Source: Planctomycetota bacterium (lineage in GTDB: Bacteria; Planctomycetota; JAJSAM01; JAJVHW01). From it: a stretch of DNA of 64,000 nt. The notes under the pieces were generated by a model. That model made no database searches. It saw only the letters and a list, made by a program, of their open reading frames with translations, and was not told the origin of the DNA. The position numbers and the translations under genes are program-made. This document shows, piece after piece, positions 33,745 to 51,926 of the stretch (the first letter of the stretch is position 1; each line of letters opens with the position of its first letter). The stretch lies in assembly GCA_965248445.1 (NCBI GenBank), contig CBDFJG010000004.1, positions 192,001-256,000 of the forward strand, read 5' to 3'.

Positions 33745-34617
33745 TCAGAAGGGCAGGTCGAGCGGCACGCCGGTCGCGGCGTCCTTCGCCGCGAGGTACG
33801 CCTTCCCCGGCTCGCAGATCTCGCTGTAGTCGCACCAGCCACACAGCGGGTTGGGAGTCGCCTCGAACGCGTCGAAGCCCAGTTCGTCGTCCTTCTCCCA
33901 GTCCGCGAGAATGCGCTCACAGACCTCGAGCAGCTCGGCCTCCTTGCGTGCCAGCAGTTCGTCGTCCGGCGTGTAGCCGAGCTCGAGGTCGTCGTTCAGG
34001 TACAGGTAGCTGCAGCGCGCGACCTTGCCGCGGAACTTGCGCGAGACGAGGATCGCGTACGCGGCGAGCTGGAGATCCTTCGCCGCCACTTCGGCATCGT
34101 CCCTCGCACGCATCGGCTTGCCCGTCTTGTAGTCGAGGATCACCAGCGAGCCGTCCGGGTTGCGGTCGATCCGGTCGATCTTGCCCGCCAGCGTGACGCG
34201 GTCGCTCAGCCGCTGTTCGTGGAACTGCTCGGCCGTCAGCGGCACGACCGTCGTGTCCTGCGTCTGGAAGAAGCGATACAGGATGTTGAGGCCCTTCTGA
34301 CCCCACGCCTTCTCGTTGTCGCGATCGTCTCCGAACGCCTCCTCGCGCGAGCGCTTCTGCTTGAAGCTATTGCGCTTGAAGACACCGCGGCCGCCCCAGG
34401 CATCACGGAGCAGGTCGCACAGCTTCTCGTACGTGCGGTCTGCGATCGCAACGCGCCCCAGATCGAAGAACGCCTCCAGCGCGTCGTGCACGGCGTTGCC
34501 GAGAACCAGAGGCGGGCTCGCCTTGAAGTACTTTCGCTTCAGTTCCTGGTCGCGCCCGTAGCGGTACTTCCGGGGACAGTTGAGGTATGCCTCGATCTGC
34601 GTCGGATAGATCTTCAT
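33745..34617 (-). CDS. PD-(D/E)XK nuclease (RecB/AddB/Cas4-like) with four-Cys Fe-S motif
   Basis: CPRKY, LGNAVHDAL, GKIDRID, LDYKTG, QLAAYA and C-terminal CGWCDYSEIC. Confidence 0.9.
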   Translation of the reverse strand: MKIYPTQIEAYLNCPRKYRYGRDQELKRKYFKASPPLVLGNAVHDALEAFFDLGRVAIADRTYEKLCDLLRDAWGGRGVFKRNSFKQKRSREEAFGDDRDNEKAWGQKGLNILYRFFQTQDTTVVPLTAEQFHEQRLSDRVTLAGKIDRIDRNPDGSLVILDYKTGKPMRARDDAEVAAKDLQLAAYAILVSRKFRGKVARCSYLYLNDDLELGYTPDDELLARKEAELLEVCERILADWEKDDELGFDAFEATPNPLCGWCDYSEICEPGKAYLAAKDAATGVPLDLPF

Positions 34618-34641: not shown

Positions 34642-34902
34642 CTAGGCGTATGTATCGGCTGCTTCCGCAGCCTCGGCCCGCTTCACGGCGCGGGAGACGA
34701 AGAACACCAACACTCCGCTCAGCGACAGGATCGAGACCATCATGAAGATGATCGACCACTGGAAGCCCGTCGCGGGATCCGCGCCCCCGGCGTCACTGTT
34801 CGCGGCGACCGCCGCGTTGCAGTTTGGTCACGCGAACGCCGTCGCTGCGAGCGCCATCACCAGCGCAACGGCGAGCGGACCAGCAGGCATTGAGCGGCGC
34901 AT
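34642..34902 (-). CDS. Small exported membrane-anchored UxxC protein, candidate selenoprotein (in-frame TGA at codon 25)
   Basis: Manual translation: MRRSMPAGPLAVALVMALAATAFA-[TGA]-PNCNAAVAANSDAGGADPATGFQWSIIFMMVSILSLSGVLVFFVSRAVKRAEAAEAADTYA*. Signal peptide, UxxC, TM helix and basic tail; fills the gap after DUF420. Absent from the ORF track. Confidence 0.75.
34795..34823 (-). promoter_or_regulatory. Candidate bacterial SECIS element
   Basis: On the mRNA: ACUG-caa-CGCGGC-GGUC-GCCGCG-aa-CAGU. The 6-bp upper stem starts 11 nt after the UGA at 34830-34828; apical loop GGUC. Confidence 0.62.
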
Positions 34903-34958: not shown

Positions 34959-35384
34959 TCACTCCAACCCGGGAGCGACGTGATACAGCATCGCGTAGAT
35001 CACGACGCCCGTGGCCGAGACGTACGCCCAGATCGGGAACGTGACCTTGGCCCAGCGGCGGTGCTGCGCGATGCGCTCCTTCCAGCCGAGGTACGCGGTG
35101 CGGAGTGCCAGGAACGGGACGATCGCGGCGAGCACCGTGTGCGTAGCCAGGATGACGAGGTAGATCCCCCGCCAGGGGGACACCTTGGGGAAGGTCTGCA
35201 GCTCGCCGGCCAGTGTGGCCCGCGTCACGTACGAGACCAGAAAGACGCTGGAGACGACCAACGCGCTCAGCATCATCCGCTTGTGCCCCGGGACGTCGCC
35301 GCGCTTCACCCGGGCGATCCCCACACAGAGCAGCACGAGCGCAGTGAGGTTCAGGGCGGCGTTGGCCGCCGCGTGCACGTGCAT
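34959..35384 (-). CDS. DUF420 (CtaM/YozB-like) membrane protein
   Basis: NAALN, HKRMM, FLVSY, ILATHTVLA, HRRWAK..PIWAYVSATGVVIY motifs. Confidence 0.92.
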   Translation of the reverse strand: MHVHAAANAALNLTALVLLCVGIARVKRGDVPGHKRMMLSALVVSSVFLVSYVTRATLAGELQTFPKVSPWRGIYLVILATHTVLAAIVPFLALRTAYLGWKERIAQHRRWAKVTFPIWAYVSATGVVIYAMLYHVAPGLE

Positions 35385-35392: not shown

Positions 35393-36055
35393 CTAGGAGC
35401 CTCGCCCGGCAGAGCGCAGCGTGTCGAGGTCCTTCATCAGCTTGTCGAGCCAGCCGGGATCCTCGAGCGGTTCGTAGTGCGCCCGTCCGCGGCCCTCGTG
35501 GTCCAGCAGCACGAACGTGGACTTGTGCAGGATCACGTCTCCGCCGTCGCCGATCTTCAGCTGGTCGGTCGTGATCGCCTTGACATGCGCACGCGACATG
35601 CGGAGGAACAGCCACTTGTCCTTGTCCGCGCCGTACTCGTCTGCGTAGTTCGACAGCACGTCGGGAGTGTCGCGCTCGGGGTCCACGCTGAACGACGTCA
35701 GCACGACGTCCTCGGCGCCGTCCAGACGCGCCTGCAACTCCTGCATCGCCTTCGACATGCGCGGACAGGTCCCGCCGCAGCTCGTGAAGATGAAGTCGAC
35801 GACGGCGAACTTGCCGCGCAGGTCGCCGGTGCTGACGACGTCTCCGGAGCGCTCGACCGCGTCGTAGACCTCGAGCTGTCCGAGGGGCTGCGGCAACAGG
35901 CCCGTGTCGCCGCGACCCGGCTCGATCAAGGGGCCGTCGCCTTCCTCGAGCGTGATCACATTCGCGTGCTCGTCGGTCGGCGGACCGCTCTCCCGGCACG
36001 CGACGAACACGAACAGGGCTGCGCCGATCAACAGGACTGGAAGCACGTAGCGCAT
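35393..36055 (-). CDS. SCO family copper chaperone
   Basis: FIFTSCGGTCP (CxxxC), SVDPERDTP, distal His in ILHKS. Confidence 0.93.
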   Translation of the reverse strand: MRYVLPVLLIGAALFVFVACRESGPPTDEHANVITLEEGDGPLIEPGRGDTGLLPQPLGQLEVYDAVERSGDVVSTGDLRGKFAVVDFIFTSCGGTCPRMSKAMQELQARLDGAEDVVLTSFSVDPERDTPDVLSNYADEYGADKDKWLFLRMSRAHVKAITTDQLKIGDGGDVILHKSTFVLLDHEGRGRAHYEPLEDPGWLDKLMKDLDTLRSAGRGS

Positions 36056-36864
36056 CACTTGTGGTCTCCTCGGCTGCGCGCCCCGACGATCCAGAGCGCC
36101 ACCACGAACATGAGGATGGCCGTCCCGGCCGTCACGCCCATGGAAACGCCGAAGGCCGGCAGGTCATGCCCGGGAACTTCGCCTCCGTACAGCGCCTGGC
36201 GGAACGCGGCGACGCCGTAGGTGAGCGGGTTGGCCTGCATCACCCAGCGCAGCCAGATCGGCGCTCCTTCGAGCGGGAAGAACGCGCCCGAGAGCAGCCA
36301 GAGCGGGAACAGGAACAGCATCATCACGGCGTGGAAGCCCTGCGTGGACTCCATGCGCCACCCGACCACGAATCCCAGCGCGGCGAGCCCGAACCCGACG
36401 ACGATCAGGACACCGACACCGGCGAGGAACGAGCCTGCCGTGACGGGCACCCCGACGACGGGCGCCATCAGCAGGAACAGGACGCCCTGGATGATCGCCA
36501 GCGTCGCGCCTCCCCCGACCTTGCCCAGAACGATGCCTGCGCGAGACGCCGGTGAGACGAGGACTGACTGCAGGAAGCCCTCGTTGCGGTCCTGGATGAG
36601 CGAGAACGTCGAGAAGATCGCGGTGAACAGGAGGACCATCACGACGGTGCCCGGGAACAGGAACTCGAGGAAGCCCTGCTTGTCCTCGCCCCCGCCGATC
36701 GAGAACGCTCCCTGGAACCCGGCGCCGAACAGCAGCCAGAACACCATCGGCTGAACGATCGCAGACGTGAGGCGCTTGCGCTGGCGCACAAACCGCACGA
36801 GCTCGCGCTTCCAGAGGGTGAACGCCGGGAGCCCGAATCGGCCAGTGAAGTCTGTGCGGCTCAC
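36055..36864 (-). CDS. ABC-2 type permease
   Basis: Six TM helices; FLFPG, DRNEGFL, LSGAFFP, NPLTYGV. Confidence 0.92.
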   Translation of the reverse strand: MSRTDFTGRFGLPAFTLWKRELVRFVRQRKRLTSAIVQPMVFWLLFGAGFQGAFSIGGGEDKQGFLEFLFPGTVVMVLLFTAIFSTFSLIQDRNEGFLQSVLVSPASRAGIVLGKVGGGATLAIIQGVLFLLMAPVVGVPVTAGSFLAGVGVLIVVGFGLAALGFVVGWRMESTQGFHAVMMLFLFPLWLLSGAFFPLEGAPIWLRWVMQANPLTYGVAAFRQALYGGEVPGHDLPAFGVSMGVTAGTAILMFVVALWIVGARSRGDHK

Positions 36865-37796
36865 TCGAACGCCTTCCCCGTCTTCTCCAGGAACACGTCT
36901 TCGAGGGTCGGCCGCCCGACGGTGACCGACGCCAGGTCGTCGCCGAACGCAGCGAGCAGACGCGCCACGAGAGCCGGTCCGGCGTCCTCGCGGACGTGCA
37001 ATCCGCCGCCGACCGAGGCCATCTGCACCCCTAGCTCGGCGCCGATTCGGGCGCGCACGGAGTCGAGTTCACCGGGGGCTGCGGGCACCGCGGTCACGAC
37101 GTCGCCCCCGAGCGCCGCGCGCAACTCGTGCGGCGTGCCGAGCGCGACGAGCTTTCCCGCGTCGAGGATCGCCACACGATCGCAGCGCTCCGCCTCCTCC
37201 ATCAGGTGCGTCGTGACGAGACACGCAACCCCGTCCTCGTCGCGCAATCGCGCGAGGTGGTCCCACACGTCGCGGCGGGCGGCGGGGTCGAGGCCGGTTG
37301 TCGGCTCGTCGAGCAGCAGCAGCCGCGGCCGGTGCAGCAGTCCCTTCGCGATCTCGACCCGGCGCTGCAGGCCTCCGGACAACTCGCGCACCAGGTCGCC
37401 GGAACGGTCGCTCAGGCCGAAGCGGGAGAGACCGGCGTCGATGCGGGCCGTGAGCTCGCGACCGCTCAGCCCATAGAGGTGACCCTGGTGAACCAGGTTC
37501 TCGCGCACCGTGAGGTGCACGTCGAGCGACGGCGATTGGAAGACGACGCCAATCCCCTCGCGCACGGCCGCGCTCTCGTCCGGAAGCGCGTGCCCGAGCA
37601 CTCGCGCCGCACCGGAGGTCGGCGGAAGGAGCGTCGAAACGACGCGGAACAGCGTCGTCTTGCCGCCGCCGTTCGGGCCGAGCAGGCCGAACAACTCGCC
37701 CGGCCGCAGTGAGAACGTGACGTCATCCAGAGCGCGTCGCTCGCCGTAGTGGCGCGACAGTCCAGCGAGGGCGAGCGGAGAGGTGCTCTCCGTCAT
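36861..37796 (-). CDS. ABC transporter ATP-binding protein
   Basis: GPNGGGKT, LSGGLQ, LLLDEPT, TTH, PTLEDVF; ATG 37796 overlaps the ctaB stop. Confidence 0.93.
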   Translation of the reverse strand: MTESTSPLALAGLSRHYGERRALDDVTFSLRPGELFGLLGPNGGGKTTLFRVVSTLLPPTSGAARVLGHALPDESAAVREGIGVVFQSPSLDVHLTVRENLVHQGHLYGLSGRELTARIDAGLSRFGLSDRSGDLVRELSGGLQRRVEIAKGLLHRPRLLLLDEPTTGLDPAARRDVWDHLARLRDEDGVACLVTTHLMEEAERCDRVAILDAGKLVALGTPHELRAALGGDVVTAVPAAPGELDSVRARIGAELGVQMASVGGGLHVREDAGPALVARLLAAFGDDLASVTVGRPTLEDVFLEKTGKAFE

Positions 37797-38689
37797 GCCG
37801 GTCCGAGCGCGGCGAACGCGAGCAGGACGACCGGGAGGTAGAGCAGCGACCCACGTAACAGCAGTCGTGCGCTGCGCTCCGAGGTGCGGAACGCGAAGAG
37901 CCCACCGCAGACTACGAGCCCCACGCCTGCCGCGAGCGCCACGATGAAGTAGTCCTGCCCTGCCAGCCCGAGCGGAACCGCAGCGAGCGAGACTGCCACG
38001 GTGAGGAGCCCCTGCACGACCACCTGTCGGGCAGTGGCGCCGCTGCCGCCGGTCACGACGGGCAGCATCGCGTACCCCGCACGCGCGTAGTCGTCGCGAT
38101 AGAGCCATGCGATCGCGAGAAAGTGCGGCAGCTGCCAGGCCGCGACCAGCGCGAACAGGAACCAGGCTCGCGTACCGAGATGTCCCGTCGCCGCGGCGGC
38201 ACCGAGGAGTGGCGGCAGCGCGCCCGGGATGGCGCCGACCAGCGTGTTCAACGAGGTGCGCGTCTTGAGCGGCGTGTAGATGCCGAGGTACGTCCCGACC
38301 GTGAGCGCGCCCAGGGCGAACGCCAGCGGCGTCGTCCAGAGAAGCAGCACACCGAGACCGAGGACGATCAGCGCCAGCCCGAACACGTACGCCTCGGCGG
38401 GCGTGACGCGGCCTGCGGGCAGCGGTCGATCGCGGGTCCGCACCATGCGGGCGTCGAGGTCCCGTTCCATCCACTGGTTCAGCGCGCTCGCGCCGAAAGC
38501 GAGTAGACCCGCTCCGGCGATTGCGGCGGCGAATCGCGATGCTGGTGCGAACGTCCCGGCGGCAACCCACCAGCCTGCGGCGACTGCGAGCACCGCCATC
38601 GCGTTCAGGCGTGGCTTCGTCAGCGCAACGAACGCACCGAGCCGTGCGGCTGCTCCGATCGGAGCTACGGTCGCGTCCGTGACGCTCAC
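37793..38689 (-). CDS. ctaB: Heme o synthase (protoheme IX farnesyltransferase)
   Basis: LTKPRL, NQWMERDLDARMVRTRDRPLPAG, YTPLK, GALPP, WQLPHF, DDYARAG. Confidence 0.95.
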   Translation of the reverse strand: MSVTDATVAPIGAAARLGAFVALTKPRLNAMAVLAVAAGWWVAAGTFAPASRFAAAIAGAGLLAFGASALNQWMERDLDARMVRTRDRPLPAGRVTPAEAYVFGLALIVLGLGVLLLWTTPLAFALGALTVGTYLGIYTPLKTRTSLNTLVGAIPGALPPLLGAAAATGHLGTRAWFLFALVAAWQLPHFLAIAWLYRDDYARAGYAMLPVVTGGSGATARQVVVQGLLTVAVSLAAVPLGLAGQDYFIVALAAGVGLVVCGGLFAFRTSERSARLLLRGSLLYLPVVLLAFAALGPA

Positions 38690-39723
38690 GACACGGCCTC
38701 GAGTTCGCGGGATGAGTCCGCCGCAGCGCTCGCCTCGATGCGATCTCGCGCCTCCGCAACGCGCTCGTCCGTCGGCACGCCGTAGATGCGGAGTCCGCGG
38801 AACAGCAGCGTGACGCAGAGCGCGAGAATCGCCGCCCCGAGCACCAGGTGCAGATTGAGGGTCGCGATGGCACCGAGAGACGGCAGGTCCTGGTAACCGG
38901 CGGCGACGTGCTGCGCTCGTTCGGTCGCTACCAGGTACGAGGCGAGGCCGAGGCCGATCTGCGCGATGACGAGTACGCCAAGCCATACGGACGGACGGCG
39001 CAGTCTCGGGAGCTCACGGGGCACGTCGCCGGCGCCGGTCAACACCAGCTTCGCCAGCAAGATCACGACGAGCAGAGCGAACATGGAGTGCACTTCGCGC
39101 GCGAGGTAGCCGTGCCGCGCGGCGGCTCCGAGGACGAGCTGCACGAATACCACGACTCCAGCCAGCATGGCTCCGCGTACGACGGCCAGGCCCGTCGCGT
39201 CGAGCGGCCGGTCTTCGTCCGTACGCCAGCGCGGGGAGAGGAACGTCGCGAGGGCGACGAGAGTGCAGAGGAAGAGCTGCGCGAACACCGAGTGCAGGAG
39301 CGGCCACGGCGGTGCCAGCAAGAACAGGACGCCGAGGCCGCCGAACGCCGCCTGCAGGACGACGAGGCCGAGAGCGAACCAGGCCAGCTTCCGAACCCAG
39401 CTGCGCGGATCGCAGCGCTGCACCCAAATGGCGAGCACGAGTGTCAGCATGCCCATCACGCCCGCAATGTGCCGGTGCAGCACCTCCGCGCGCAGCGTGT
39501 CGATGCGATACAGCTCCCTCAGCTTGGCCCAGTCCGGCAGCAGCTCACCGTAGATCAGCGGCCAGTCCGGGACAGTGAGACCCGCGCGCTGCGTGCGCAC
39601 GTTCGCCCCCGCGAGCAGTAGGAGCACGCAGAACCCCACACACAGCGCCGCCCATCTGAACAACCGGCTCGGCCGTCCCACGTCAGGTGGTTCGACACGG
39701 GTGGCGGTGTTCTTTTCGTCCAT
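38686..39723 (-). CDS. ctaA: Heme A synthase (COX15/CtaA family)
   Basis: AGLTVPDWP, EVLHR, QAAFGG, conserved His residues, QLVLGAAARH; sits between ctaD and ctaB. Confidence 0.88.
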   Translation of the reverse strand: MDEKNTATRVEPPDVGRPSRLFRWAALCVGFCVLLLLAGANVRTQRAGLTVPDWPLIYGELLPDWAKLRELYRIDTLRAEVLHRHIAGVMGMLTLVLAIWVQRCDPRSWVRKLAWFALGLVVLQAAFGGLGVLFLLAPPWPLLHSVFAQLFLCTLVALATFLSPRWRTDEDRPLDATGLAVVRGAMLAGVVVFVQLVLGAAARHGYLAREVHSMFALLVVILLAKLVLTGAGDVPRELPRLRRPSVWLGVLVIAQIGLGLASYLVATERAQHVAAGYQDLPSLGAIATLNLHLVLGAAILALCVTLLFRGLRIYGVPTDERVAEARDRIEASAAADSSRELEAVS

Positions 39724-39766
39724 GGTGCTGCGCGGATGCCGCCTCTTGCGGCACCCGTTGCGTGCG

Positions 39767-41566
39767 CTATCCCGCGGGCGTGGAGGTGACCTCGCGCTCC
39801 GAGAGATCCAGGTCCTGCGGGAGCCAGTCTTCGTCCACCTCGGGTGAGGCGTACTCGTACGGCCCGCGATAGACGGTCGGGATGACCGGTCCGAAGTTGC
39901 CGTGGATGCCCGGCGTCGGGGATGCCGTCCACTCGAGCGTGTTGGCGTTCCAGGGGTTCTGCTCTGCCTTCTTGCCCTTCCACATGCTCCAGAGCACGTT
40001 GAAGAGAAGGATCAGCTGCGTGAACCCGAGCAGGATCGCGGCGTGCGTCATGAGCCTGTTCATCGGCAGCATGCCGTCGATGTAGACGTACTTCTCGTAC
40101 GGGTTCTGCGTTCGGCGGTGCATGCCGCCCATGCCGACGACGTGCATCATGAAGAACGTCATGTTGAAGGCGATGAAGGACAGCCAGAAGTGGATGTACC
40201 CGAGCGTCCGGTTCATGTGGCGCCCGAACATCTTCGGGTACCAGTAGTAGATCCCGGCGAACGCGCCGAACAGGCTGCCGCCGAATAACACGTAGTGGAT
40301 GTGCGCGACGATGAAGTACGTGTCGTGGATGTGCACGTCCACGGGTGTCGCGGCCATGTAGATCCCTGATAACCCGCCGATCACGAACATGCTGACGAAC
40401 GCAATGGCGAAGCACATCGGCACCGTGAACCGAATTTGACCGCGCCACAATGTCGCCAGCCAGTTGAACACCTTGATGGCGCTCGGTAGCGCGATCATCA
40501 TCGTCGAGAGCATGAAGGTCATGCCGAGCATCGGGTTCATGCCGCTCTGGAACATGTGGTGACCCCACACGATGAACCCGAGTCCGGCGATGCCTGCGAT
40601 GGAGTAGACCATCGGGCGGTAACCGAAGATCGGCTTGCGCGCGAACGTCGCGATGACGTCCGACGCCATACCCATCGACGGCAGGATCATGATGTAGACG
40701 GCGGGGTGGCTGTAGAACCAGAACAGGTGCTGGTAGAGGATCGGGTTGCCACCGCCCGACGCGTAGTTGAACGGGTTGCCGCCGATCTCGAGGCCCTGCG
40801 AGAGGCCCGCCGGGATGAAGAAGCTGGAGCCCCAAACGCGGTCCAGCAGCAGCATGATCATCGCGGACGTCAGCACCGGCGTGGCGAACACCGACAGGAT
40901 GCTGGTGATGAAGATCGACCAGACCGTGAGCGGCATGCAGAAGAAGCGCATGCCCGGCGCGCGCATGGTCACGATCGTCGTGATGTAGTTGGTCGCGCCC
41001 ATGATCGAGCCGGAGCCGACCAGGATGACGCCCACGCACCAGAGTGATTGACCCTGACCGGCGAGATACGAGAGCGGTGGATAGCCCGTCCACCCAGAGG
41101 CGGGTGCCCCCGCCGCTCCCTCGATCACGAACGACATGCCGAAGCAGACGAACGCAGGCCACATGACCCAGTACGAGACCATGTTCAGAAGCGGGAAGGC
41201 CATGTCGCGCGCACCGATCATCAGCGGCACGCAGAAGTTCCCGAACGCGCCGACGAGCATCGGAATGATGACCAGGAAGATCATCACCGAGGCGTGCATC
41301 GTGAACGCCATGTTGTAGATGTCGCCGCTGGCGACGTTCTCGCCCTCGCCGTACATCGCTTCGAGGATCGACCCGAGCACCGGGACCTCGGTGTTCGGGT
41401 ACGCCAGCTGCCAGCGGACGATCAGCGCCAGCGCCCCGCCGACGAACATCCAGAGCAGCGTCGTGATGAGGAACTGCTTGCCGATCATCTTGTGGTCCAT
41501 CGAGAAGACGTATTTCCCGAGGAACCCCGGCTCGTGGTGGTGATCGTGGCCGTGCTCGTCGCCCAT
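39767..41566 (-). CDS. ctaD: Cytochrome c oxidase subunit I (A2-type)
   Basis: DHKMIG, TMHAS, GARDMAFP, WFYSHPAVY, WGHHM, HDTYFIVAHIHY, GMHRR. Confidence 0.97.
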   Translation of the reverse strand: MGDEHGHDHHHEPGFLGKYVFSMDHKMIGKQFLITTLLWMFVGGALALIVRWQLAYPNTEVPVLGSILEAMYGEGENVASGDIYNMAFTMHASVMIFLVIIPMLVGAFGNFCVPLMIGARDMAFPLLNMVSYWVMWPAFVCFGMSFVIEGAAGAPASGWTGYPPLSYLAGQGQSLWCVGVILVGSGSIMGATNYITTIVTMRAPGMRFFCMPLTVWSIFITSILSVFATPVLTSAMIMLLLDRVWGSSFFIPAGLSQGLEIGGNPFNYASGGGNPILYQHLFWFYSHPAVYIMILPSMGMASDVIATFARKPIFGYRPMVYSIAGIAGLGFIVWGHHMFQSGMNPMLGMTFMLSTMMIALPSAIKVFNWLATLWRGQIRFTVPMCFAIAFVSMFVIGGLSGIYMAATPVDVHIHDTYFIVAHIHYVLFGGSLFGAFAGIYYWYPKMFGRHMNRTLGYIHFWLSFIAFNMTFFMMHVVGMGGMHRRTQNPYEKYVYIDGMLPMNRLMTHAAILLGFTQLILLFNVLWSMWKGKKAEQNPWNANTLEWTASPTPGIHGNFGPVIPTVYRGPYEYASPEVDEDWLPQDLDLSEREVTSTPAG

Positions 41567-41568
41567 GA

Positions 41569-42582
41569 TCAGAAGTCCTCCTCGTCGTCTTCCGACGGCG
41601 TGTCGGGTCCTAGGTCATCGGGTCCGAACGGTTTGCGTTGCCAGCGCGGCTTCTCGAGGGCGAGGTTCTCGCTCTGCCACTGCCAGCGCCACCAGATCTC
41701 GTACGAGACGCTTCCGTTCGGACCGATCTTCCCGTGCTCCGGCAACTTCACGGATGTCGGCTGACCGGCCATCCACGCCTCGTAATCGGCGTTCGACACG
41801 ACGTACAGCCGGGCCGACATGGCGGAGTGCGTGGCGCCACACAACTCGGCGCAGACGATGTCCCAGTAGTCGAGCTGCACGTCGTTGCTGTCGCGGTCCT
41901 TGACGGTCTTTCGATCGGCGGACAGCTTGTTGGAGCGGAACCACACGTTCGCCGGCCACCCCGGAACCGCGTCCTGCTTGAAGCGCAGGTTCGGCAGGAA
42001 GAAGCTGTGAAGCACGTCCATCGACCGTTCCTCGGCGAGGACCGGCCGGTCGATCGGGATGATCAGTGCACCCGTCGTTACGAGGTCGTCGTTCGCGGAG
42101 AACTTCCCCTCGGCATCCGCGACGGCGTACTCGCCGTCGGGACCGGGGTAGCGGAAGTTCCACTCGAACTGCTTCGCGAAGATCTGCACGGGAACGGCTT
42201 CGCCGTCCATCTCGCCCGGCCGGGCCGACTTCATGTCGAGCCAGAGTTCGGCCTGGTACACCGCGAGCAGCACGAGGATCAGCGACGGGACGATGGTCCA
42301 CACGATCTCGACCGCGTGGTTGCCGTGCGTGTGCTTCGCCTTCTGCCCCGCCTTCGCGCGGTACTTGAAGAGGAAGTAGACGAGGACAGCCTGGACGAGC
42401 ACGAACGTGACGCCCGTGATCCACGTGATCAGGTACGTCAGCCTGTCGATCTCCTCGGCCTGCTCCGAGGCAGGCTCAGGGAGCCAGCCCAGGACGTCGC
42501 CCGAGCAGCCTGCGAGGAGCGCGACGCTCGCGAGCGCCCCGAGGGCGCGCAGGCAGTTCTGTCCGCGCTTGGTGGTGCTCAA
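41569..42582 (-). CDS. ctaC: Cytochrome c oxidase subunit II (CuA, lipoprotein)
   Basis: Lipobox LAGC, two TM helices, EIVWT, QFEWNFRY, DVLHSF, CAELCGATHSAM. TTG 42582 has a GGAGG RBS; ATG 42618 is an alternative start. Confidence 0.93.
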   Translation of the reverse strand: MSTTKRGQNCLRALGALASVALLAGCSGDVLGWLPEPASEQAEEIDRLTYLITWITGVTFVLVQAVLVYFLFKYRAKAGQKAKHTHGNHAVEIVWTIVPSLILVLLAVYQAELWLDMKSARPGEMDGEAVPVQIFAKQFEWNFRYPGPDGEYAVADAEGKFSANDDLVTTGALIIPIDRPVLAEERSMDVLHSFFLPNLRFKQDAVPGWPANVWFRSNKLSADRKTVKDRDSNDVQLDYWDIVCAELCGATHSAMSARLYVVSNADYEAWMAGQPTSVKLPEHGKIGPNGSVSYEIWWRWQWQSENLALEKPRWQRKPFGPDDLGPDTPSEDDEEDF

Positions 42583-42760
42583 CTCGTCCGCCTCCCGCCC
42601 CGGCTCTGCCAGGCTCATCCGTTCCACGACGAGGCGGGATGTTAGCCCAAGCGGGGGCGTCTTCAGGACCGGGAAACGGCCCGATCCGGTGGTTCCCGAC
42701 CGGAGTCGCGCCGGCCCCCCGAAAGCGGGCCCGGAAGCGGCTCCGGCCTGCATCCGCCGA

Positions 42761-43558
42761 CTACTGCGGCAGCGTCACGTCCGACGTCACGGCGTCGCCG
42801 GCGATCGTCACCTTGAAGCTCTTCTCACCGAACTTCTCGTGCCACGCCTTCATCTCGTACTCACCGTCCGGGAGGCCCGCGATCGAGTACGCGCCGCTGG
42901 CGTCGGTCGTGGCGAAGAACGGGTGCTCCGAAGCGAACGCCCAGGCGCTCATCCAGGAGTGCACGTCGCACGAGAAGGGGATGCGTCCCTCCCTCTTGTC
43001 CATCGTGATGGTGTCGGAGGCGCCGGCCTCCTGAGCCTCATTGAACGGCTCGTTGCGCTTCGCCTTGACGTGGACGTTGTGCGTCGTTGCGTCGCTGTTC
43101 ACGACGTCGAACGCCTGGCCGACCATCACGCCGAAGACGTGCGGCTTGTAATAGCACCCCTCCTGCACGAGCTTGAAGCCCGACGGAATCTCGTAGCCGG
43201 ACATCTCCTTGTGCGGGCCCTTGTGCGCCCAGACGAAGACGTTCGGGAGCGTCATGTCCTCGTTGACCCAGAACTTCTGGTCCCACGCATCCTTGTCGGC
43301 CCACGCACCGGCGCAGACTTCGTCGCTGCTGACGTTCAGCTTGACCTGCTCGGGACGCGTGCCGTCGAGCTTGACGGTGCCAGACACGCTGCCCTTCGCC
43401 GCCGCGGCGTCGTACGGAGTCTTGTCGCTGGACGCGCCGCCCGATCCGCCGCCGTTGTCGGCCGCATCACCGCCGCCCGACTTCTTGTCGTCGCCGCCGC
43501 AGGCCACCAGGCCGAGCATCACGAGCCCGGTTGCGAGTCCCATCACGATCGTTTTCAT
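42761..43558 (-). CDS. Lipoprotein with amicyanin-like cupredoxin insert and carboxypeptidase-regulatory-like fold (paralog 1)
   Basis: GGAGGAGG RBS; lipobox LVAC; THNVH and CDVHSWM; HPFFATTDASGAYSIAGLPDGEY. Confidence 0.85.
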   Translation of the reverse strand: MKTIVMGLATGLVMLGLVACGGDDKKSGGGDAADNGGGSGGASSDKTPYDAAAAKGSVSGTVKLDGTRPEQVKLNVSSDEVCAGAWADKDAWDQKFWVNEDMTLPNVFVWAHKGPHKEMSGYEIPSGFKLVQEGCYYKPHVFGVMVGQAFDVVNSDATTHNVHVKAKRNEPFNEAQEAGASDTITMDKREGRIPFSCDVHSWMSAWAFASEHPFFATTDASGAYSIAGLPDGEYEMKAWHEKFGEKSFKVTIAGDAVTSDVTLPQ

Positions 43559-43757
43559 CTCGAGAGTCCTCCTCCGTCCGTCCCGCGCGGGCCCGGACGA
43601 TCCGATGTATTGCATGCCCCGTCGCTGCCGCGTGCGGACACTTGGACCCGTGCGGCAGGGGTAAGCCGACGATGTTCCGGCGACACCGCGGCATCTCCAA
43701 GAACTCGGGGGGGCCGGCCCGCCGTCCCGGTTCCCAGCCGCCTCCGAGCGACCCGGA

Positions 43758-44552
43758 TCACTCCGCCGCCAGGCTCGGTTCCAGGGTCACGGACGCCCCC
43801 TGCGTCACGGTGGCGCGCACCTCCGTCCGGCCGAAGTGTGGGTGGTCGACCCGGAACACGTAGTCCCCCGCCGGCAGGCCCTCGACCGAGAACGCCCCGG
43901 CGGCGTCCGTTGTGGCGAAGAACGGGTGCTCGACGACGTAGCAGTGGGCCTGCATCCACGAGTGCGTGTCGCAGACGAAGTCGACCCGTTCGCGCTTCGT
44001 CAGCGAGATCGCATCCCGCGTCCCCGGCGGCTGCGCGAGATTGAAGGGCTTGTTGCGTTTCGGCTCCGCGTGGACGTTGTGGGTCGTATTGTCGCCGTTC
44101 ACGACCCAGAGACCCTGGCCAAGCAGGATGCCCGACACGTACGGGTGGTACATGCCTCCGGTCTGCACGATCTCCGCAGCGTCAGGGACTGGAAACCCGG
44201 TGAACGTCTCGTGTGGCCCCTCGTGCGCGTACACGAACGCGTGCGGCAGCGTGCCGTCCGCGTTCACGACGAACTTCGGATTGAAGACGGGGTCGGGTGC
44301 GAACGCGGCGACGCACACGTCGTCGACGCCGCCCTTGAACTGTTCCTGCGCCGGAAGCGCCCCGGTCAGTCGTACCGTGCCCACGACCTGGCCGGTGTGC
44401 GCGCCGGACTCGTAGACCGTCTTCTCCACGACACCGGGGACGCCGGGCCCTGGCGGTGGACTGCCTGTCGGCGGCGCGTCTTCGCACGCGTCGCAGCCGG
44501 CCAGCGAAGCGATCGCTGCGATGGTGAACAGAGTCCTGCGGATCGACGTCAT
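43758..44552 (-). CDS. Cupredoxin-like lipoprotein (paralog 2)
   Basis: Lipobox LAGC; THNVH and CDTHSWM; HPFFATTDAAG. Confidence 0.85.
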   Translation of the reverse strand: MTSIRRTLFTIAAIASLAGCDACEDAPPTGSPPPGPGVPGVVEKTVYESGAHTGQVVGTVRLTGALPAQEQFKGGVDDVCVAAFAPDPVFNPKFVVNADGTLPHAFVYAHEGPHETFTGFPVPDAAEIVQTGGMYHPYVSGILLGQGLWVVNGDNTTHNVHAEPKRNKPFNLAQPPGTRDAISLTKRERVDFVCDTHSWMQAHCYVVEHPFFATTDAAGAFSVEGLPAGDYVFRVDHPHFGRTEVRATVTQGASVTLEPSLAAE

Positions 44553-44705
44553 CCTAAGAGCCCTCCGGAAGTAGACGGACGTCACACGCCCCACGATTCG
44601 CAACGCGCGCCCCACGCAACACCATCCCGGAATCGAACCCCCTGGTCCGTGCACGGGCGGGGGTGGAACCCCCGCCCGCACGGAAGGCATGCGAGGGACC
44701 TGAGG

Positions 44706-45554
44706 TCAGCGCGCGAGGCTCAAACCGATTGCCGCTGTCTCCCCGGACACCACTTCGACCTCCGCCTGTCCCTCCCCGAACCCCGGGTGCCAGGCGTGGA
44801 TCGTGTAGTAATCTGGAGGGAGCCCGCCGATCTCGAAGCGGCCGGCCGCGTCGGTGGTGGCGAAGAACGGGTGGTCCAGCACCCAGCAGTAGGCGCTCAT
44901 CCAGCTGTAGCAATCGCACGTGATGCGAACCCTCGCGCTCTTCGTGAACACGATCGTGTCCGAGGCGCCCGGCGCCTGGGTCTTCGCGATCCTCGGGTTG
45001 CGCCGCGAGGTCACGTTCAGGCAGTGCGTCTCGTCATCGAGGTTCCGCACGACCAGCGGCTGGCCGCGTAGCAGTCCGAAGACGTAGGGCCGGTACATGT
45101 AGAGGTGCGCGTCGAGATGCACCGGCGGACTCCGGGCGCCGTCAGTGATCCGAGCGACGGCGCGGACAAGGGGCGCCGCACGGATCCACACGAACGCGTT
45201 GGGCAGCGTACCGTCCGGGTTGATCGTGAACTTCGGATCGAACACCGGCGAGTCGACCGTCGCGGCTGCGGCCGTGGACGACGCGCTCATGTTGATGCGA
45301 ACCGGCGGGACGGGTGTGCCGGCGAACACCGCGACCCCCGTGATCCGCCCGGGCGGCTGCTCGAGAGCCGCCCGCTGCTCGGCGGACAGTTCCACGGAGT
45401 CGAGCGTTACGTCGAGGTCCGGTCGCAGCGGCGGGCCGGAGTCGAGCGGCAGCGACAGACACCCGCGGACCAGGAACAGCCCGAACACCGCCGCGAGGAG
45501 CGCGCCGCCGGCCACCACGACGACGGTCGCGAGCGCGGATCGGGTTCGGGCCAT
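44706..45554 (-). CDS. Cupredoxin-like membrane-anchored protein (paralog 3, altered ligand loop)
   Basis: Clear paralog (NPDGTLPNAFVW, HPFFATTDAAG) with THCLNV and CDCYSWM; GGAGG RBS. Confidence 0.82.
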   Translation of the reverse strand: MARTRSALATVVVVAGGALLAAVFGLFLVRGCLSLPLDSGPPLRPDLDVTLDSVELSAEQRAALEQPPGRITGVAVFAGTPVPPVRINMSASSTAAAATVDSPVFDPKFTINPDGTLPNAFVWIRAAPLVRAVARITDGARSPPVHLDAHLYMYRPYVFGLLRGQPLVVRNLDDETHCLNVTSRRNPRIAKTQAPGASDTIVFTKSARVRITCDCYSWMSAYCWVLDHPFFATTDAAGRFEIGGLPPDYYTIHAWHPGFGEGQAEVEVVSGETAAIGLSLAR

Positions 45555-46476: not shown

Positions 46477-49400
46477 TCAGTCGTCGAGAGACCTCAGATA
46501 GCGGACGATGAGGTCGACGTGGTCGCCCTCGTACGCCTTGGCCGATGGCAGAGACTGGTCCTGGAACACCCATCTGCCGAGTTCGTGCGACTTGCCGCAG
46601 CTCGGGCAGAGACGTGGATGGTCGGACAGCTGATCCGGATTGATCAGCGCCTGGCACCCTGGGCATTCCTTCCGGAAGAGTGCCGGCATCGCCGTACCCG
46701 GCTCGAGAAGACTGGGATTCTGTATCCAGCGCGCGACCCACTCGGGACGCAATCGCGCGGCCGTGTAGCTGAGGTTCGGCGCCTTCGTCTCGTCGTTGAG
46801 GGGCTGTCCCGTCACCACGTGGCACTGCACGCAGTTCGCGGACGCGAAGATCGCCTCGGCGGCCTGCCGCTCGGTCGGCGAGAGCGTCCACAGTTTCGGT
46901 GCCTGGTAGATGTCGGGCTGCTTCGCCATCGCGTCGAAGAAGCGCACCAGTGCACGTGCCTCGCGCGCCGTGAACTCGAACGTCGGCATGCGCACCGTCA
47001 GGTGCGGCCGCACGGACTTCGGGTTCGCCGTTCCACCGCCCAGCGACGGGTCGCGCAGGAAGTCGGTCAGCCATGTCGGGCGCGTGCGGAAACCGGTGCC
47101 GACGAGGTACGGCGGCCGGTCACCCTCGTTCTCCTGCCCAGCCACGAAGTGCGGGAGCTTCTGGATCGCCGGCACCATGCCCGGACGGATCTGGTGGCAG
47201 CCCTCGCAGTTGTACTTCCGCACCAGCCACCAGCCCTCGCGGACGGCCTGGCCGGTCTCGGTCGGCTGGTACTTGATCGTGGACGGGAGGAACTTGTCCT
47301 CCACGCTGCCCATCAGCAGCGAGACGATGTCGTAGATCTCCTGCCCGGACAGGTTGAACTTCGGCATGCGCAGGCGCGACCAGCGATCCACGTTCTTCGA
47401 CGTGTCGTAGATCTCCGGCTTCGCCAGCTTGTGCATCGCGAACCCGCGGTGGTTGTACCAACTGCCGTGCGGATAGAAGTCGCGGTTGTCGTCGAAGATC
47501 TTGAGGTCGTCCTTCGGCGCCGTCCACCCGAGCAGCGGCTCGTTCTCGTCGTGGTGCTCGGACCCGCGCTTCGCCGCAACGGTGTAGTGGCCGAAGTCGA
47601 GGCGCTCCATGGGCTTGCTGCCCCAGCCGTTCATCGACGTGCCGATGCGGCCCTCGTTCTCGAGCCCGCCAATCTCGTGGCAGCCCGCGCAACCGTGGTG
47701 TGCCACCAGGCGCTTGCCGCGATCGAAACGATCCGTCTCTTCGAGCCAGGGCGCCGCCGCCGGGAAGTCGACACCGGTCGCACCGCCCTGCGACAGCAGG
47801 TACGTGGCGATGTCCGTGGCCTCCTTCCGATTGAGGCGGAGGCTCGGCATGACCACCGTGTTGTCCCACTGCAGGTCGAAGCCGCAGTTGGGGCAGGCGG
47901 TGTGCTCACGGCCGAAGACGAGGCCCTCGCCGTGCTTCTCGAAGTCCGCCGGAGTCAGGTCCCGCTTGCACTCCGCGCAATACGGTGCCAGGCGATGGCG
48001 CGGGTTCGTGACCCAGTGCACCACGTGCTCGAGGTTCGACTTCTCGCCGAGGTTCGTGAGGTTCGCGGCGAACGTGTTCCCCATCCACGAGCCGTCCGCC
48101 TGGTCGCCGATCGAGTGACACGCGAGGCAGCCGACCGAATTGAAGAGCTCTTCGCCTGCGGTCGGGTCGCCGGGTGAGACCGGCTCCATCCCGTACACCG
48201 TGAGATCGGCGGCGACGTTCGTGGACGACTGCCACAGGAACGCGGCCACGTCTTTCGCCTCGTCGTCGCCATACCAGCGGAACGCCGGCATCTTGGTCGA
48301 GGGGCGCCAGTTCCTCGGGTCCTGGATCCACTGCGTGAGCCACTCGGGCTTCACCTTGGCGCGCAGGTCCTTCAGGTTCGGGCCGACCTTCTTGCGCTCC
48401 TTGACGACGTCGTACAGCTCGCGACCGAGGTTCGTCCGTTCGGTCTGCAGGCCCGCGATCTGCATGCGCAGCGCGTTCCCCTGCAGTGCCACGTCGCCCG
48501 CCAGCCGGTTCGCGACGTCTTCGTCCTCGTCGAACACGGGGTCGACCACTGCCTTCAGGTTTCGTGCCCGCTGCTCGAGCGCCTCCATCTCGAGGTCGAT
48601 GTCCGTGATCCGCATGGCGACCCCGCGCGAACGCTCCGGCTCGACGTCGTAGCCCTTCAGTTCGTGACAGCCCCAGCAGCCGTAGTGGCGGAAGTTCTCC
48701 TTCGCCTGGCTGATGCGCTCGCCGCCTTCGAGGTGGATGTCGCCGAGGTGGCACTGGTTGCAACCCGCCTCGAAGTTGGTCGGCGGGTGCATGCGCTTGA
48801 GCCAGTAGTGGTTCAGCCCGTGCGCGTTCTCGGCAGCGGAGTTCTTGTTGCCGTAGGTGATCGCGACGCCGTTGCCGCCGTGACACATGGAGCAGCCGAA
48901 CTCCTCGGGGTCGTGTGTCCCGAACAGCTCCGCCTGCCGCGGGTGGCTCTCGTAGAGTTTCATCTCGTCGCCGCCGAGAGCGGCGGCGTTGATCGGCATC
49001 GGACTGCGTGCGTTCAGATGGCACGTCTCGCAGCGGTCGACCCAGTTCTTCGTGTCCTGGATGTGAAGCTGCTTGATCGTCCCGATGGAGAAGTCCTCGA
49101 TCGAGCTCTTGAGGCCGATGACCTGGTCGGGCTTGAGACCCGTCACGTATCGCTCCAGATACCTCTCGGCGCCGACCTCGATGACCTTGTCCGCGATCTC
49201 CTTGCGCATGTCGTCGTCGTCGACGTTGTCGAGCAGGAGCGCGATGTTGCCCATGTTCGTGTCGAGCCAGCGGTTCCGGGCCGCCTCGGCCGCCGAAAGA
49301 GCGCGCGAAGCGGCGCCGAGGTCGCCCTGGCGTGCGGACTTGTTGAGCTGCAGCTCGTCTGCGCGGGCGATCAGTTCACGCACAGTCGAGGTCTGCGACT

Positions 49401-49944
49401 TCTCCTCGTCGCCGACGGTCCACGAGTAGGTGACCTCGCGGGCTTGCACCTTCTTGATCTTCTCGAGGTAGCCCTGCGCGCCCTCGGTGTCGACGACGTC
49501 GAGCTTGCCCGCGACGTCCGCGGCGTGCTCGGCCTTGTAGGAAGTCGCCGCGATCTCGCTGCGGGGGCTCTTGATCGCCTCTCGGATCGACGTGAGCTCG
49601 GAGGAGATGCCGTTGATCTCGCTCTGCAGGGCATCGCGGCGGTCCTTGCTCGCCTCGGCAGCCGACTGGGCCGCTGTGACAAGCGCTTGGTAGTCGTCGA
49701 GCCCCGAGATCTGCTGCTGCACGAACTGGCGGTCGCCCTGCACGCCGTCCAGGTACCCGACCATCGCGTCCTGCCACGTGCGCTGGTATCCGAAGTACGG
49801 ACGCCGCGTGATGAACTCGTCGTAGACGACCAGGACCGACGAGATGACCACGGCCAGCGCCGCGATCACGATCGGCACCGACAAGGACCGCTCGTAGAGC
49901 GGGTCTTTCGGGATGTCGGGGGTGGTGGGCTTGTCGTCGCTCAT
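46477..49944 (-). CDS. Membrane-anchored 8-heme c-type cytochrome of the Rieske/cytochrome b complex
   Basis: CxxCH motifs CETCH, CSMCH, CNQCH, CWGCH, CLACH, CAGCH, CEGCH, CVQCH; N-terminal TM and coiled coil; ATG 49944 after GGAG. Confidence 0.93.
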   Translation of the reverse strand: MSDDKPTTPDIPKDPLYERSLSVPIVIAALAVVISSVLVVYDEFITRRPYFGYQRTWQDAMVGYLDGVQGDRQFVQQQISGLDDYQALVTAAQSAAEASKDRRDALQSEINGISSELTSIREAIKSPRSEIAATSYKAEHAADVAGKLDVVDTEGAQGYLEKIKKVQAREVTYSWTVGDEEKSQTSTVRELIARADELQLNKSARQGDLGAASRALSAAEAARNRWLDTNMGNIALLLDNVDDDDMRKEIADKVIEVGAERYLERYVTGLKPDQVIGLKSSIEDFSIGTIKQLHIQDTKNWVDRCETCHLNARSPMPINAAALGGDEMKLYESHPRQAELFGTHDPEEFGCSMCHGGNGVAITYGNKNSAAENAHGLNHYWLKRMHPPTNFEAGCNQCHLGDIHLEGGERISQAKENFRHYGCWGCHELKGYDVEPERSRGVAMRITDIDLEMEALEQRARNLKAVVDPVFDEDEDVANRLAGDVALQGNALRMQIAGLQTERTNLGRELYDVVKERKKVGPNLKDLRAKVKPEWLTQWIQDPRNWRPSTKMPAFRWYGDDEAKDVAAFLWQSSTNVAADLTVYGMEPVSPGDPTAGEELFNSVGCLACHSIGDQADGSWMGNTFAANLTNLGEKSNLEHVVHWVTNPRHRLAPYCAECKRDLTPADFEKHGEGLVFGREHTACPNCGFDLQWDNTVVMPSLRLNRKEATDIATYLLSQGGATGVDFPAAAPWLEETDRFDRGKRLVAHHGCAGCHEIGGLENEGRIGTSMNGWGSKPMERLDFGHYTVAAKRGSEHHDENEPLLGWTAPKDDLKIFDDNRDFYPHGSWYNHRGFAMHKLAKPEIYDTSKNVDRWSRLRMPKFNLSGQEIYDIVSLLMGSVEDKFLPSTIKYQPTETGQAVREGWWLVRKYNCEGCHQIRPGMVPAIQKLPHFVAGQENEGDRPPYLVGTGFRTRPTWLTDFLRDPSLGGGTANPKSVRPHLTVRMPTFEFTAREARALVRFFDAMAKQPDIYQAPKLWTLSPTERQAAEAIFASANCVQCHVVTGQPLNDETKAPNLSYTAARLRPEWVARWIQNPSLLEPGTAMPALFRKECPGCQALINPDQLSDHPRLCPSCGKSHELGRWVFQDQSLPSAKAYEGDHVDLIVRYLRSLDD

Positions 49945-50026
49945 CTCCGCCTTTCGAACGCGTCCCACACGGACGCGCCGCACAGTGAAGGGAAGCACGC
50001 GGGAGTTGGTCTCCCGCGCGCCGACG

Positions 50027-50971
50027 TCACACGTTGAACCAGGGCGTCACCCAGACGTACTTGATGGTGAACAAGAGCTTCAGCGCCATCTTCACGGGCA
50101 CCGCGATCATGATCACGAGGAAGCCGACGAGGTGCATGTACTGGATGATGTTCATCTTGCGGAACAGCTCGGGCTTGTACTTGCGGATCGCGAAGTCCAC
50201 GGCACCGCCGGTCGCCGCCAGGAACCCGAGAGTCATGACGCCACCGAACACTCCGATCATCATCGGATCCGTCAGGCCGAAGATCTCGTGCAGGTGCACG
50301 TTGACCTCGTGCACGACGCGGTGGCTGTCCCACGTCTGACCCGGCCAGAACCACATCCAGCCCGGGCCGCGGATGAACGTCCCGATGAACGCGAGCAGGA
50401 GCCACAGCACGAGGTAGCCGAACATGAAGCCGCCGATGGCGAACTTGCGCTGCTTCCACGTGTAGTACCCGTTGCCGAGCGGACTCGGGTCCATGTACGG
50501 GATCGCCATCAGTCCGACCACGATCACATTGGGCAGAATCACACCCGCGATCCACGGGTCGAAGTAGACGAGCAGTTCCTGCAGCCCGAGGAAGTACCAC
50601 GGCGCCTTCGCCGGGTTCATCGTGAGCGTCGGGTTGGCCGGTTCCTCGAGCGGCGCGTCGAAGTAGATGGCCCACAGGATGAGGAACGCCGTGACGATCA
50701 GGCAGGCCAGGAACTCGATGCGCAGCAGGTACGGCCACGCGTGCACCGTCTTGTCCCACGCGGCGTGGTACGGCTGGTGCTTCCTGTGGTGGGTCTTGGC
50801 GAGCGCGGGGTCCGCCTCGAGCTGCGTGATCAGGCGGTCGTTGCGGACCGCCTCGCGGAAGCCGTACCACAGGTACCAGGGTGTGATGATCGCCAGCAGG
50901 ACGATCGGGATGTTGTCCGGCAGGACCGTGATGTCCACCAGCTGCTGCCAATCGATCGCGAACAGGTGCAT
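50027..50971 (-). CDS. Cytochrome b subunit IV-like (C-terminal half of split cytochrome b)
   Basis: APLEEPANP, KAPWYFLGLQELL (PEWY equivalent), IPYMD; TGATG coupling to the upstream gene. Confidence 0.9.
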   Translation of the reverse strand: MHLFAIDWQQLVDITVLPDNIPIVLLAIITPWYLWYGFREAVRNDRLITQLEADPALAKTHHRKHQPYHAAWDKTVHAWPYLLRIEFLACLIVTAFLILWAIYFDAPLEEPANPTLTMNPAKAPWYFLGLQELLVYFDPWIAGVILPNVIVVGLMAIPYMDPSPLGNGYYTWKQRKFAIGGFMFGYLVLWLLLAFIGTFIRGPGWMWFWPGQTWDSHRVVHEVNVHLHEIFGLTDPMMIGVFGGVMTLGFLAATGGAVDFAIRKYKPELFRKMNIIQYMHLVGFLVIMIAVPVKMALKLLFTIKYVWVTPWFNV

Positions 50972-51855
50972 CAGCGCCTCCCCTTCGCGGTCTTGACTTC
51001 GCTGGCGAGCATGACGGGCGCAGGTCCGGAAATGGACCCGTCCTTACGGATGCGCCAGAAGTGCACGATCATGAACGTGCCGCCGACGAGCGGCAGCGCG
51101 ACGCAGTGCCAGATGTACGCTCGAAGCAACGCATTCGCGTCGACGATCGAGCCCCCCAGCATCGCGAATCGGATGTCGTTGTAGGCCGACGCGCCGATCT
51201 CCGGGCCGAAGGGACCCTCGTGACCGATGAGTGGCGTTGCGCGCGCCATGTTCGTGCCGACCGTGACCGCCCAGAAGCCGAGCTGGTCGTCCGGCAGCAG
51301 GTAGCCGGTGAACGAGAGCAGCATGGTCACGAGGAGCAGGATCACGCCGACGTTCCAGTTGAATTCGCGTGGCGGCTTGTACGAGCCGGTCATGAACACG
51401 CGCATCTGGTGCATCCAGACGGTGATGATCATGGCGTGCGCCGCCCAGCGGTGGAGGTTGCGCAGGAAGTTGCCGAACGGCACGTCGTTCTTGAGGTAGA
51501 GGATGTCGCGGAACGCGTCCGCCTTCGACGGGTGGTAATAGAACATGAGCGCCACGCCCGTGAGGGTCAGGATCAGGAACAGGTAGAACGTGATCCCGCC
51601 CATGCCCCACGTGAACGTGTAGCGCACGGCGTCGCGGTTGAGCTTGGCAGGATGCAGGTGCAGGAACACGTTCGAGAGCACCGCGAGCGAACGGTTGCGC
51701 GGCGTGTCGTCGACCTTGTGGCGGAAAATCGAACGCCACATCGACGTCTCGAACGGGTTCTGCAGCCACTTCTTGTGAAGCGGCACGGCCTCCTTGGCCT
51801 TGTCGATGACGTCGCCGAGGCCGGGCGTGTCATCCGGGGGAGTCTTGGGAACCAT
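50971..51855 (-). CDS. Cytochrome b6-like subunit
   Basis: [17 protein letters not shown]...[31 protein letters not shown]...[14 protein letters not shown] 51882 is an alternative start. Confidence 0.93.
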
Positions 51856-51926
51856 CCATGCCCTCTTGTTCTGCCGTTGCACTCATGCCCGGCGCGGACC
51901 TGGCCCGCGCGTCGCGCCGCTCTGCG

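Follow-up and report, generated by a model that had tools for sequence, protein, structure and literature searches.

A small gene on the minus strand of the window, the 64,000-nt stretch of Planctomycetota DNA analysed here, carries an in-frame TGA at codon 25, and the hairpin that follows this codon is very likely a working bacterial SECIS directing selenocysteine (Sec) to it. That the UGA is recoded as selenocysteine seems to us close to certain, a reading supported by a hairpin that is tied to the UGA across relatives, by compensatory changes in its stem, by a shift of its register in genes whose UGA lies at the other cysteine of the motif, and by the Sec machinery that the genome carries. 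The selenoprotein family to which the gene belongs is apparently new to the catalogues, and in the window the gene ends a same-strand run of oxidase genes (coxB-coxA-ctaA-ctaB-ABC-sco-ctaM).

Features of the small gene, its hairpin and their surroundings (window coordinates; entries with a contig number refer to the assembly of the same genome, G000)
Feature	Position	Strand	Basis
86-residue ORF with TGA read through	34642..34902	-	ORF translation, third-position GC, hydropathy, related clusters
Predicted signal peptide, residues 1-24, A-F-A end just before Sec	34831..34902	-	sequence and hydropathy
In-frame TGA, codon 25, predicted selenocysteine (U of U-P-N-C)	34828..34830	-	aligns with an invariant Cys
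Very likely SECIS core: 6-bp upper stem and GGUC cap (loop 34810-34807)	34801..34816	-	fold, homologue pairing
4-bp lower stem (34823-34820 with 34798-34795)	34795..34823	-	forms in the window sequence; not conserved
Predicted membrane helix, about residues 47-68	34699..34764	-	hydropathy up to 2.4; long helix in Cys-relative model
DUF420 (CtaM-type oxidase assembly protein), upstream neighbour	34959..35384	-	Pfam PF04238, E 7e-39
Sco/SenC copper chaperone	35393..36058	-	Pfam PF02630, E 2e-19
ABC-2 permease, heme O synthase-type UbiA protein, heme A synthase (COX15), oxidase subunits I and II	36055..42753	-	Pfam
ABC ATPase	within 36055..42753	-	read from sequence motifs
PD-(D/E)XK nuclease gene	33745-34617	-	
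Three tandem paralogues directly upstream of coxB	42761-45554	-	
1173-residue multi-heme cytochrome c and split cytochrome b pair	46477-51882	-	
Oxidase subunit III and subunit IV-like ORF of G000	C4 ~714700-715800	-	
TGA-bearing AhpC/TSA-domain and thioredoxin-like genes of G000	C3:1415434, C4:186597, C1:314895, C3:1771569, C1:614143, C4:1756433		

Reading the minus strand from position 34830 to 34795 gave the very letters that the initial annotation had proposed as a SECIS-like hairpin, and folding reproduced the 4-bp lower stem, the internal loop, the 6-bp upper stem starting 11 nt after the UGA and the GGUC loop starting 17 nt after it. In the MFE fold, nt 8-11 pair with nt 33-36 in the lower stem, a 3x2 internal loop follows, and nt 15-20 pair with nt 25-30 in the upper stem; the energy of the hairpin was -15.2 kcal/mol and its ensemble frequency 0.80. 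The TGA was covered without a differing letter by contigs from four of the four runs of one sample, which are possibly the source data and so not independent. Rfam returned three chance matches only (E 1.8-8.7) and a promoter/terminator scan gave nothing informative.

Taken by itself the window hairpin is hardly above chance, while across relatives it is far beyond chance. The geometry of loop and stem, which had been put forward as independent support for recoding, is real, but in a single sequence this support is weak, since the 40-nt fold had a z of -1.85, with 10 of 200 shuffles equally good, and z fell off with length (-0.70 for 50 nt, +0.26 for 60 nt). GGUC-capped stems of at least 4 bp at 15-20 nt were found after 117 of the 106,498 TGA triplets of the genome. 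We also scored stems with a 4-6-nt loop that has G-G or G-U in its first positions and lies 16-20 nt after the codon, giving one point to each Watson-Crick pair and 0.5 to each G-U pair; a score of 6 was reached by 724 of the 106,498 genome TGAs, and a score of at least 6 by 16% of 20,000 synonymous re-draws of the window peptide. Single-sequence folding statistics (z, genome TGA counts and re-draws) were therefore rejected as proof of a SECIS, being too weak.

Relatives of the gene were frequent. A search with the single protein gave matches in 19 of 61 genomes, and a profile of 18 members gave 123 places in 113 of 401 genomes. The counts given here cover 112 of the first 113 places, one vicinal C-U place being left out; these 112 members, from 108 genomes, carry the four-residue motif as CxxC (57), UxxC (40), CxxU (13) or UxxU (2). 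The 10 weakest places lie outside the counts and comprise five vicinal U-U forms, one UxxC, two CxxU and two without motif. Both Cys positions were invariant in 18/18 and in 100/100 aligned members. TGA stands at the position of the window codon in 42 of the 112 members and at a Cys position in 55, followed by an open frame and conserved protein; TAA or TAG never occurs there, although the motif filter itself excluded these codons, motif-less places being one of the 123 matches at that step and two later weak matches.

If the hairpin is a SECIS, as the initial annotation held, it should follow the UGA, and this is what the relatives show. A stem score of at least 5 after the first motif codon was found in 32 of the 40 UxxC genes, where synonymous re-draws predicted 9.0, and in none of the 13 CxxU, 2 UxxU and 57 CxxC genes; all six pairs are kept in 31/40 UxxC genes. 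After the fourth motif codon such a score was reached by 7 of the 13 CxxU genes (0.4 expected from re-draws in the shifted register) and one of the two UxxU genes, as against 0/40 UxxC and 0/57 CxxC. The hairpin of CxxU genes, whose UGA replaces the second cysteine, is displaced by ~10 nt downstream along with the UGA, with a median local MFE of -10.7 in the shifted register versus -6.6 in the original one, and four further CxxU genes have interrupted hairpins with the loop at the same shifted place. Eight UxxC and six CxxU genes fell below the score threshold, several of them forming interrupted or displaced hairpins.

The stem itself varies in a way that preserves pairing. In the 11 first UxxC homologues the upper stem was paired in 66 of 66 cells, with compensatory or double-sided changes at four of the six pairs, and covariation amounted to 0.425 versus 0.164 in shuffled alignments (0/500 as high, in a control that ignores relatedness). 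Upper-stem cells were paired in 216/240 cases in the 40 UxxC genes versus 128/342 in the 57 CxxC genes, and the fully paired stem occurs in 11 different sequence versions among UxxC genes, although the relatives behind these hairpin counts are not independent of each other. The GGUC loop is identical in 34 of the 40 UxxC genes, and its Val codon is GTC in 37/37 UxxC genes versus 8/11 Cys genes. The lower stem did not share this fate: it forms in the window sequence as claimed, but it was paired in 63.6% of cases in the 11 UxxC homologues and in 87/160 cells across UxxC genes versus 115/228 in CxxC genes, that is, at the CxxC background, and we rejected it as a conserved element. A metagenome scan, with a pattern that ends ahead of the upper stem, gave the hairpin in 12 of 15 family matches versus 2 of 106 non-family matches among those listed, two of the matches being identical to a genome copy already counted.

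These comparisons also bear on whether the UGA is a true stop, leaving a pseudogene or a 24-residue peptide, with a hairpin that is a by-product of high GC and of an Ala-Val-Ala peptide. The weak single-sequence statistics, the shortness of the ORF and a word-based protein search in which none of 17 candidates passed, so that no product of the window gene was found, would suit such a reading. We nevertheless regard it as very improbable, given the exclusive use of TGA at the Cys position of 55/112 members with conserved protein beyond it, the compensatory stem changes and the register shift of CxxU genes. Moreover, among Cys genes encoding the same A-V peptide, eight were listed and none was fully paired.

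The genome is equipped for selenocysteine insertion, with selA, selB and selD above cut-offs and tRNA-Sec (selC) present; its selD has an in-frame TGA itself. selA and/or tRNA-Sec is present in every one of the 55 genomes that carry a UGA form (both in 52, one in 3 that are 67-91% complete), while the 53 Cys-only genomes have both in 26 cases, one in 4 and neither in 23, so that all 23 genomes lacking selA and tRNA-Sec have Cys forms only. In these counts two weak selA-like matches in genomes without tRNA-Sec were scored as absent, and selB was checked in the window's own genome. The match between UGA and Sec machinery is weaker than it appears, because selA is present in 290 of the 401 genomes sampled from the phylum, and because one family accounts for 18 of the 23 machinery-free genomes. 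The use of Sec seems to be widespread among the uncultured members of the phylum; in one family of mostly complete genomes, selA was found in only 1 of 20.

TGA also stands at the active-site Cys of five AhpC/TSA-domain genes and one thioredoxin-like gene of the same genome, and no Sec formate dehydrogenase was found in it. When seven other TGA-bearing genes from it were folded (selD, the five AhpC/TSA-domain genes and the thioredoxin-like gene), six had a hairpin loop 18-23 nt after the UGA, beside which the 17 nt of the window hairpin is at the short end. A genome-wide screen for further SECIS-bearing ORFs proved too noisy for counting. General reassignment of UGA is unlikely in this genome, since TGA closes neighbouring genes under table 11 and tRNA-Sec is present.

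Compared criterion by criterion, the window hairpin agrees with all four criteria of the bSECIS consensus model (PMC13188914 Fig. 2A). In the parts of that review consulted for the model (PMC13188914), the element lies directly after the in-frame UGA within the coding region; its upper stem has 4-16 bp and its apical loop 3-9 nt (6 bp and 4 nt in the window); the first two loop positions contain G, after which G or U mostly comes (GGUC in the window); and the UGA-to-loop distance is 16-37 nt, with an MFE of at most -7.5 kcal/mol (17 nt and -15.2 in the window). The likeness to E. coli fdhF that the initial annotation drew was confirmed in its main lines on the fetched gene, where the upper stem begins at nt 15 and GGUC at 18 nt from the UGA; the window element likewise lies in the coding region right after the UGA, its upper stem opening at the same nt, 11 nt after the codon, and carrying the same GGUC loop. 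The match is not exact, since the window lacks the bulged U (U17) of the E. coli upper stem, having six unbroken G-C pairs instead and a short, non-conserved lower stem, and this absence accounts for a loop at 17 rather than 18 nt. In the consulted part of PMC8659212 the bulged U is called essential in E. coli and, together with G23, a SelB contact; according to the same part, fdhF has a conserved upper and a loose lower part, as does the window element. The SECIS is thus an ordinary bacterial element, lacking only the E. coli bulged U.

The protein is another matter. The UGA aligns to a conserved Cys and UGA-bearing homologues occur in other Sec-using genomes, yet searches of Pfam, NCBIfam (June 2026), PDB sequences and Foldseek gave no significant family match for the small protein. 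Table 1 of a 2026 review holds 119 selenoprotein families (PMC13188914), and none of them was recognisable as the window family when compared by name, domain and context. The closest comparison is with its UxxC/CxxU families, namely CYCXC (PF13798), GOS_C (NF045500), TsoX (NF045809), NF041197 (Dual CXXC small protein) and PF02411 (putative mercuric transport protein), with which the window family shares the replacement by Sec of one Cys in a CxxC-type motif, a large number of Cys homologues and a SECIS just downstream. Unlike them, it has no thioredoxin fold, is tied to aerobic heme-copper oxidase genes and places Sec at either position, at both, or in vicinal CU or UU pairs; moreover, the models of the Table 1 families were not matched by 18 members (NCBIfam) or by 100 Cys members (Pfam). 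In the text of the review 'planctomyc' is absent and 'oxidase' occurs in a reference only (PMC13188914). The families of Haft and Tolstoy 2025 were covered through the table of PMC13188914. The consulted parts of the deep-Sep and BSepDB literature hold nothing on the window family, BSepDB being, according to those parts, a collection of reported families only, and the consulted parts of PMC12808453 and PMC4513850 have no bearing on its novelty. Full-text literature searches, judged on listed titles and the openings of abstracts, gave no description of the family; the candidate lists of Deng et al. 2026 might contain it.

Cys relatives are numerous. At E<=0.001 we found 4438 related clusters, and the Cys relatives are mostly unnamed or labelled hypothetical; atlas look-alikes (score 0.90, TM 0.6-0.7) are likewise unnamed clusters, from Verrucomicrobiota, Acidobacteriota, Planctomycetota and Bacteroidota, and serve as a lead only. 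A tree of the 112 members (quick method, 82 columns) was poorly resolved; explaining its labels takes 11 changes for UxxC and 7 for CxxU, but its starred branches force only 2. Five CxxU genes belong to one genus.

Some members depart from the single-UGA pattern. Distant members with a tandem TGA-TGA, encoding a vicinal U-U (L317, L320, L322, L323 and L324, in genomes G250, G387, G055, G121 and G361), and one with a vicinal C-U (L152 in G205) each have a hairpin then downstream and oxidase subunit genes nearby; a CxxC or UxxC copy is also present in four of the five U-U genomes. The two UxxU members (L136 in G334 and L150 in G289) have their UGAs 9 nt apart, and the one in G334 has a single hairpin, 18 nt after the second UGA and 27 nt after the first, so that one SECIS may serve both codons. 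In each of two genomes, G012 and G016, a UxxC copy adjoins CtaM and a CxxC copy lies separately (L040/L055 and L050/L041), the CxxC copy of G016 coming after subunit IV; such pairs could be a selenium-dependent backup or serve two jobs. A second family member was not found in the window's own genome.

The ORF encodes a hydrophobic leader, the U-P-N-C motif, a polar linker, one hydrophobic helix and a basic tail, and GC at the third codon position is 0.85 downstream of the TGA. With table 11, standard gene calling would end the frame at codon 25, and such genes are likely absent from annotations. The predicted signal-peptide site is kept among UxxC members, with A at -3 in 33/40 and A or G at -1 in 36/40, and the family alignment contains no conserved His or further Cys ligand. 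In a structure model of a Cys relative (pLDDT 78, pTM 0.40), the leader helix and the motif are followed by a short helix, and a long membrane helix is also present. Longer or fused forms were absent among 7999 in the search, which is weak evidence, and a complex prediction for a natural Cys member with its CtaM neighbour scored 0.00, a value that we count neither for nor against an interaction.

The gene neighbourhood points to heme-copper oxidases. An oxidase subunit or assembly gene lies in the fetched flank, mostly 1.5-2.7 kb per side, of 93 of the 112 loci (46/55 Sec and 47/57 Cys), with CtaM in 66/112, Sco in 64/112 and a subunit IV match in 35/112. CtaM is present in 110 of the 113 genomes with a family match versus 184 of 401 overall; conversely, where a genome had given no first match, a family member was seen in 3 of the 40 CtaM loci looked at (40 of 74 such genomes examined), and the small protein is not an obligatory partner of CtaM. 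According to the consulted part of PMC9145763, DUF420 is CtaM, which heme A oxidases need and which is thought to act on CuB or at a late step, while CuA is built by Sco and PCuAC or CtaK, with TlpA holding cysteines reduced; the same part of the review expects further oxidase assembly factors that are still unidentified.

From this neighbourhood we lean towards a membrane-tethered U-x-x-C copper/thiol shuttle in oxidase assembly, a leaning that takes in the whole chain of steps proposed here. In this chain SelB would almost certainly bind the G-G-U loop, with Sec-tRNA decoding the UGA at codon 25. A cut by signal peptidase I behind A-F-A would then probably place Sec at the mature N-terminus, or beside it, on the outer face, where a single membrane helix would anchor the protein. 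The selenolate/thiolate pair at the start of the short helix might then, somewhat more plausibly than otherwise, bind Cu(I) or maintain in the reduced state the cysteines with which Sco or subunit II binds copper, the predicted shuttle working beside Sco and CtaM. Set against the known copper and thiol factors of oxidases (Sco, PCuAC/CtaK, Cox11_CtaG, Caa3_CtaG, TlpA and CtaM, as far as covered by the consulted part of PMC9145763), the small protein shares a predicted membrane anchor and outward-facing Cys-type ligands and is encoded beside Sco and CtaM; unlike them, it has only ~60 mature residues and no sequence similarity to any. The known oxidase copper chaperones Sco, PCuAC, Cox11 and Caa3_CtaG gave no sequence or fold match to it, and the 2026 table names none of these copper/thiol factors among its selenoproteins (PMC13188914). 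PCuAC, Caa3_CtaG and Cox11 were not found in the window's own 92%-complete genome, so the job of copper loading may be open there.

The same neighbourhood could be read differently with the SECIS still real. The protein might be a small structural or regulatory subunit of the finished oxidase or of its supercomplex, in which the Sec/Cys pair would form a selenylsulfide with a stabilising or a redox-sensing role. Genes of one subgroup come immediately after those for subunits III and IV, one membrane helix with conserved surface residues is what an accessory subunit could look like, and the vicinal CU and UU forms are as compatible with a redox ring as with a metal site. We hold this to be possible but doubtful, as most members adjoin the assembly genes Sco and CtaM, no solved structure was matched by sequence or fold, and Sec for a purely structural bond would be unusual. 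Alternatively, the protein could have a general redox or metal job in the envelope, for instance as a lipidated thiol/selenol buffer, and sit in the oxidase operon for co-regulation only, in keeping with the 19 of 112 loci that have no oxidase gene in the flank and with the several other TGA-bearing thioredoxin-fold genes of the genome. This we judge improbable in view of an oxidase linkage that extends across many families and several gene orders, the near-constant presence of CtaM in genomes with a family match, and two features that misfit the lipobox consensus, the A at -3 and, in 23/112 members, a Gln before Cys.

Around the shuttle candidate, the window shows further features. The PD-(D/E)XK nuclease gene begins 25 nt past the small gene, and it stands at the same place in two Cys-form relatives from the same family. 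The three tandem paralogues upstream of coxB have a carboxypeptidase-regulatory-like C-terminal domain and carry His...Cys-x-x-His/Tyr-x-Trp-Met motifs, which we take to recall blue-copper sites; similar genes flank seven family loci. The multi-heme cytochrome c and split cytochrome b pair lie ahead of the oxidase genes, an order that suggests a bc-type complex and an oxidase encoded in one run. Oxidase subunit III and the subunit IV-like ORF lie ~480 kb away from coxB-coxA of the window, and no family member was found behind this distant pair. In addition, near-identical sequence recurs at many sites on at least three contigs (e.g. C1:237674, C2:302025 and C4:1914416), probably a multi-copy insertion sequence.

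According to the 2026 review, selenoproteins are rarely retained by aerobic bacteria (PMC13188914). The family described here stands in contrast to this view, as a Sec protein linked to an oxygen reductase occurs in at least 55 of the 401 sampled genomes of the phylum. With its thousands of clusters of unnamed Cys relatives (4438), the family is a concrete candidate for an oxidase assembly factor that is still unidentified, and the usage of Sec marks its two active residues. It also offers a natural experiment in SECIS positioning, since the hairpin shifts with the UGA; the UxxC form of the window is the commonest Sec form and has the clearest SECIS covariation, while double-UGA and vicinal forms bear on whether one SECIS can serve two codons. 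As a tentative proposal, the protein might be the copper-loading factor still missing for the heme-copper oxidases of Planctomycetota and related phyla, a minimal membrane peptide with an N-terminal selenocysteine that hands copper over to the oxidase. If true, this would make it the first selenoprotein with the dedicated task of building an oxygen-reducing enzyme, with Sec in either or both ligand positions (UxxC, CxxU, UxxU, CU, UU) and a SECIS that re-forms in step.
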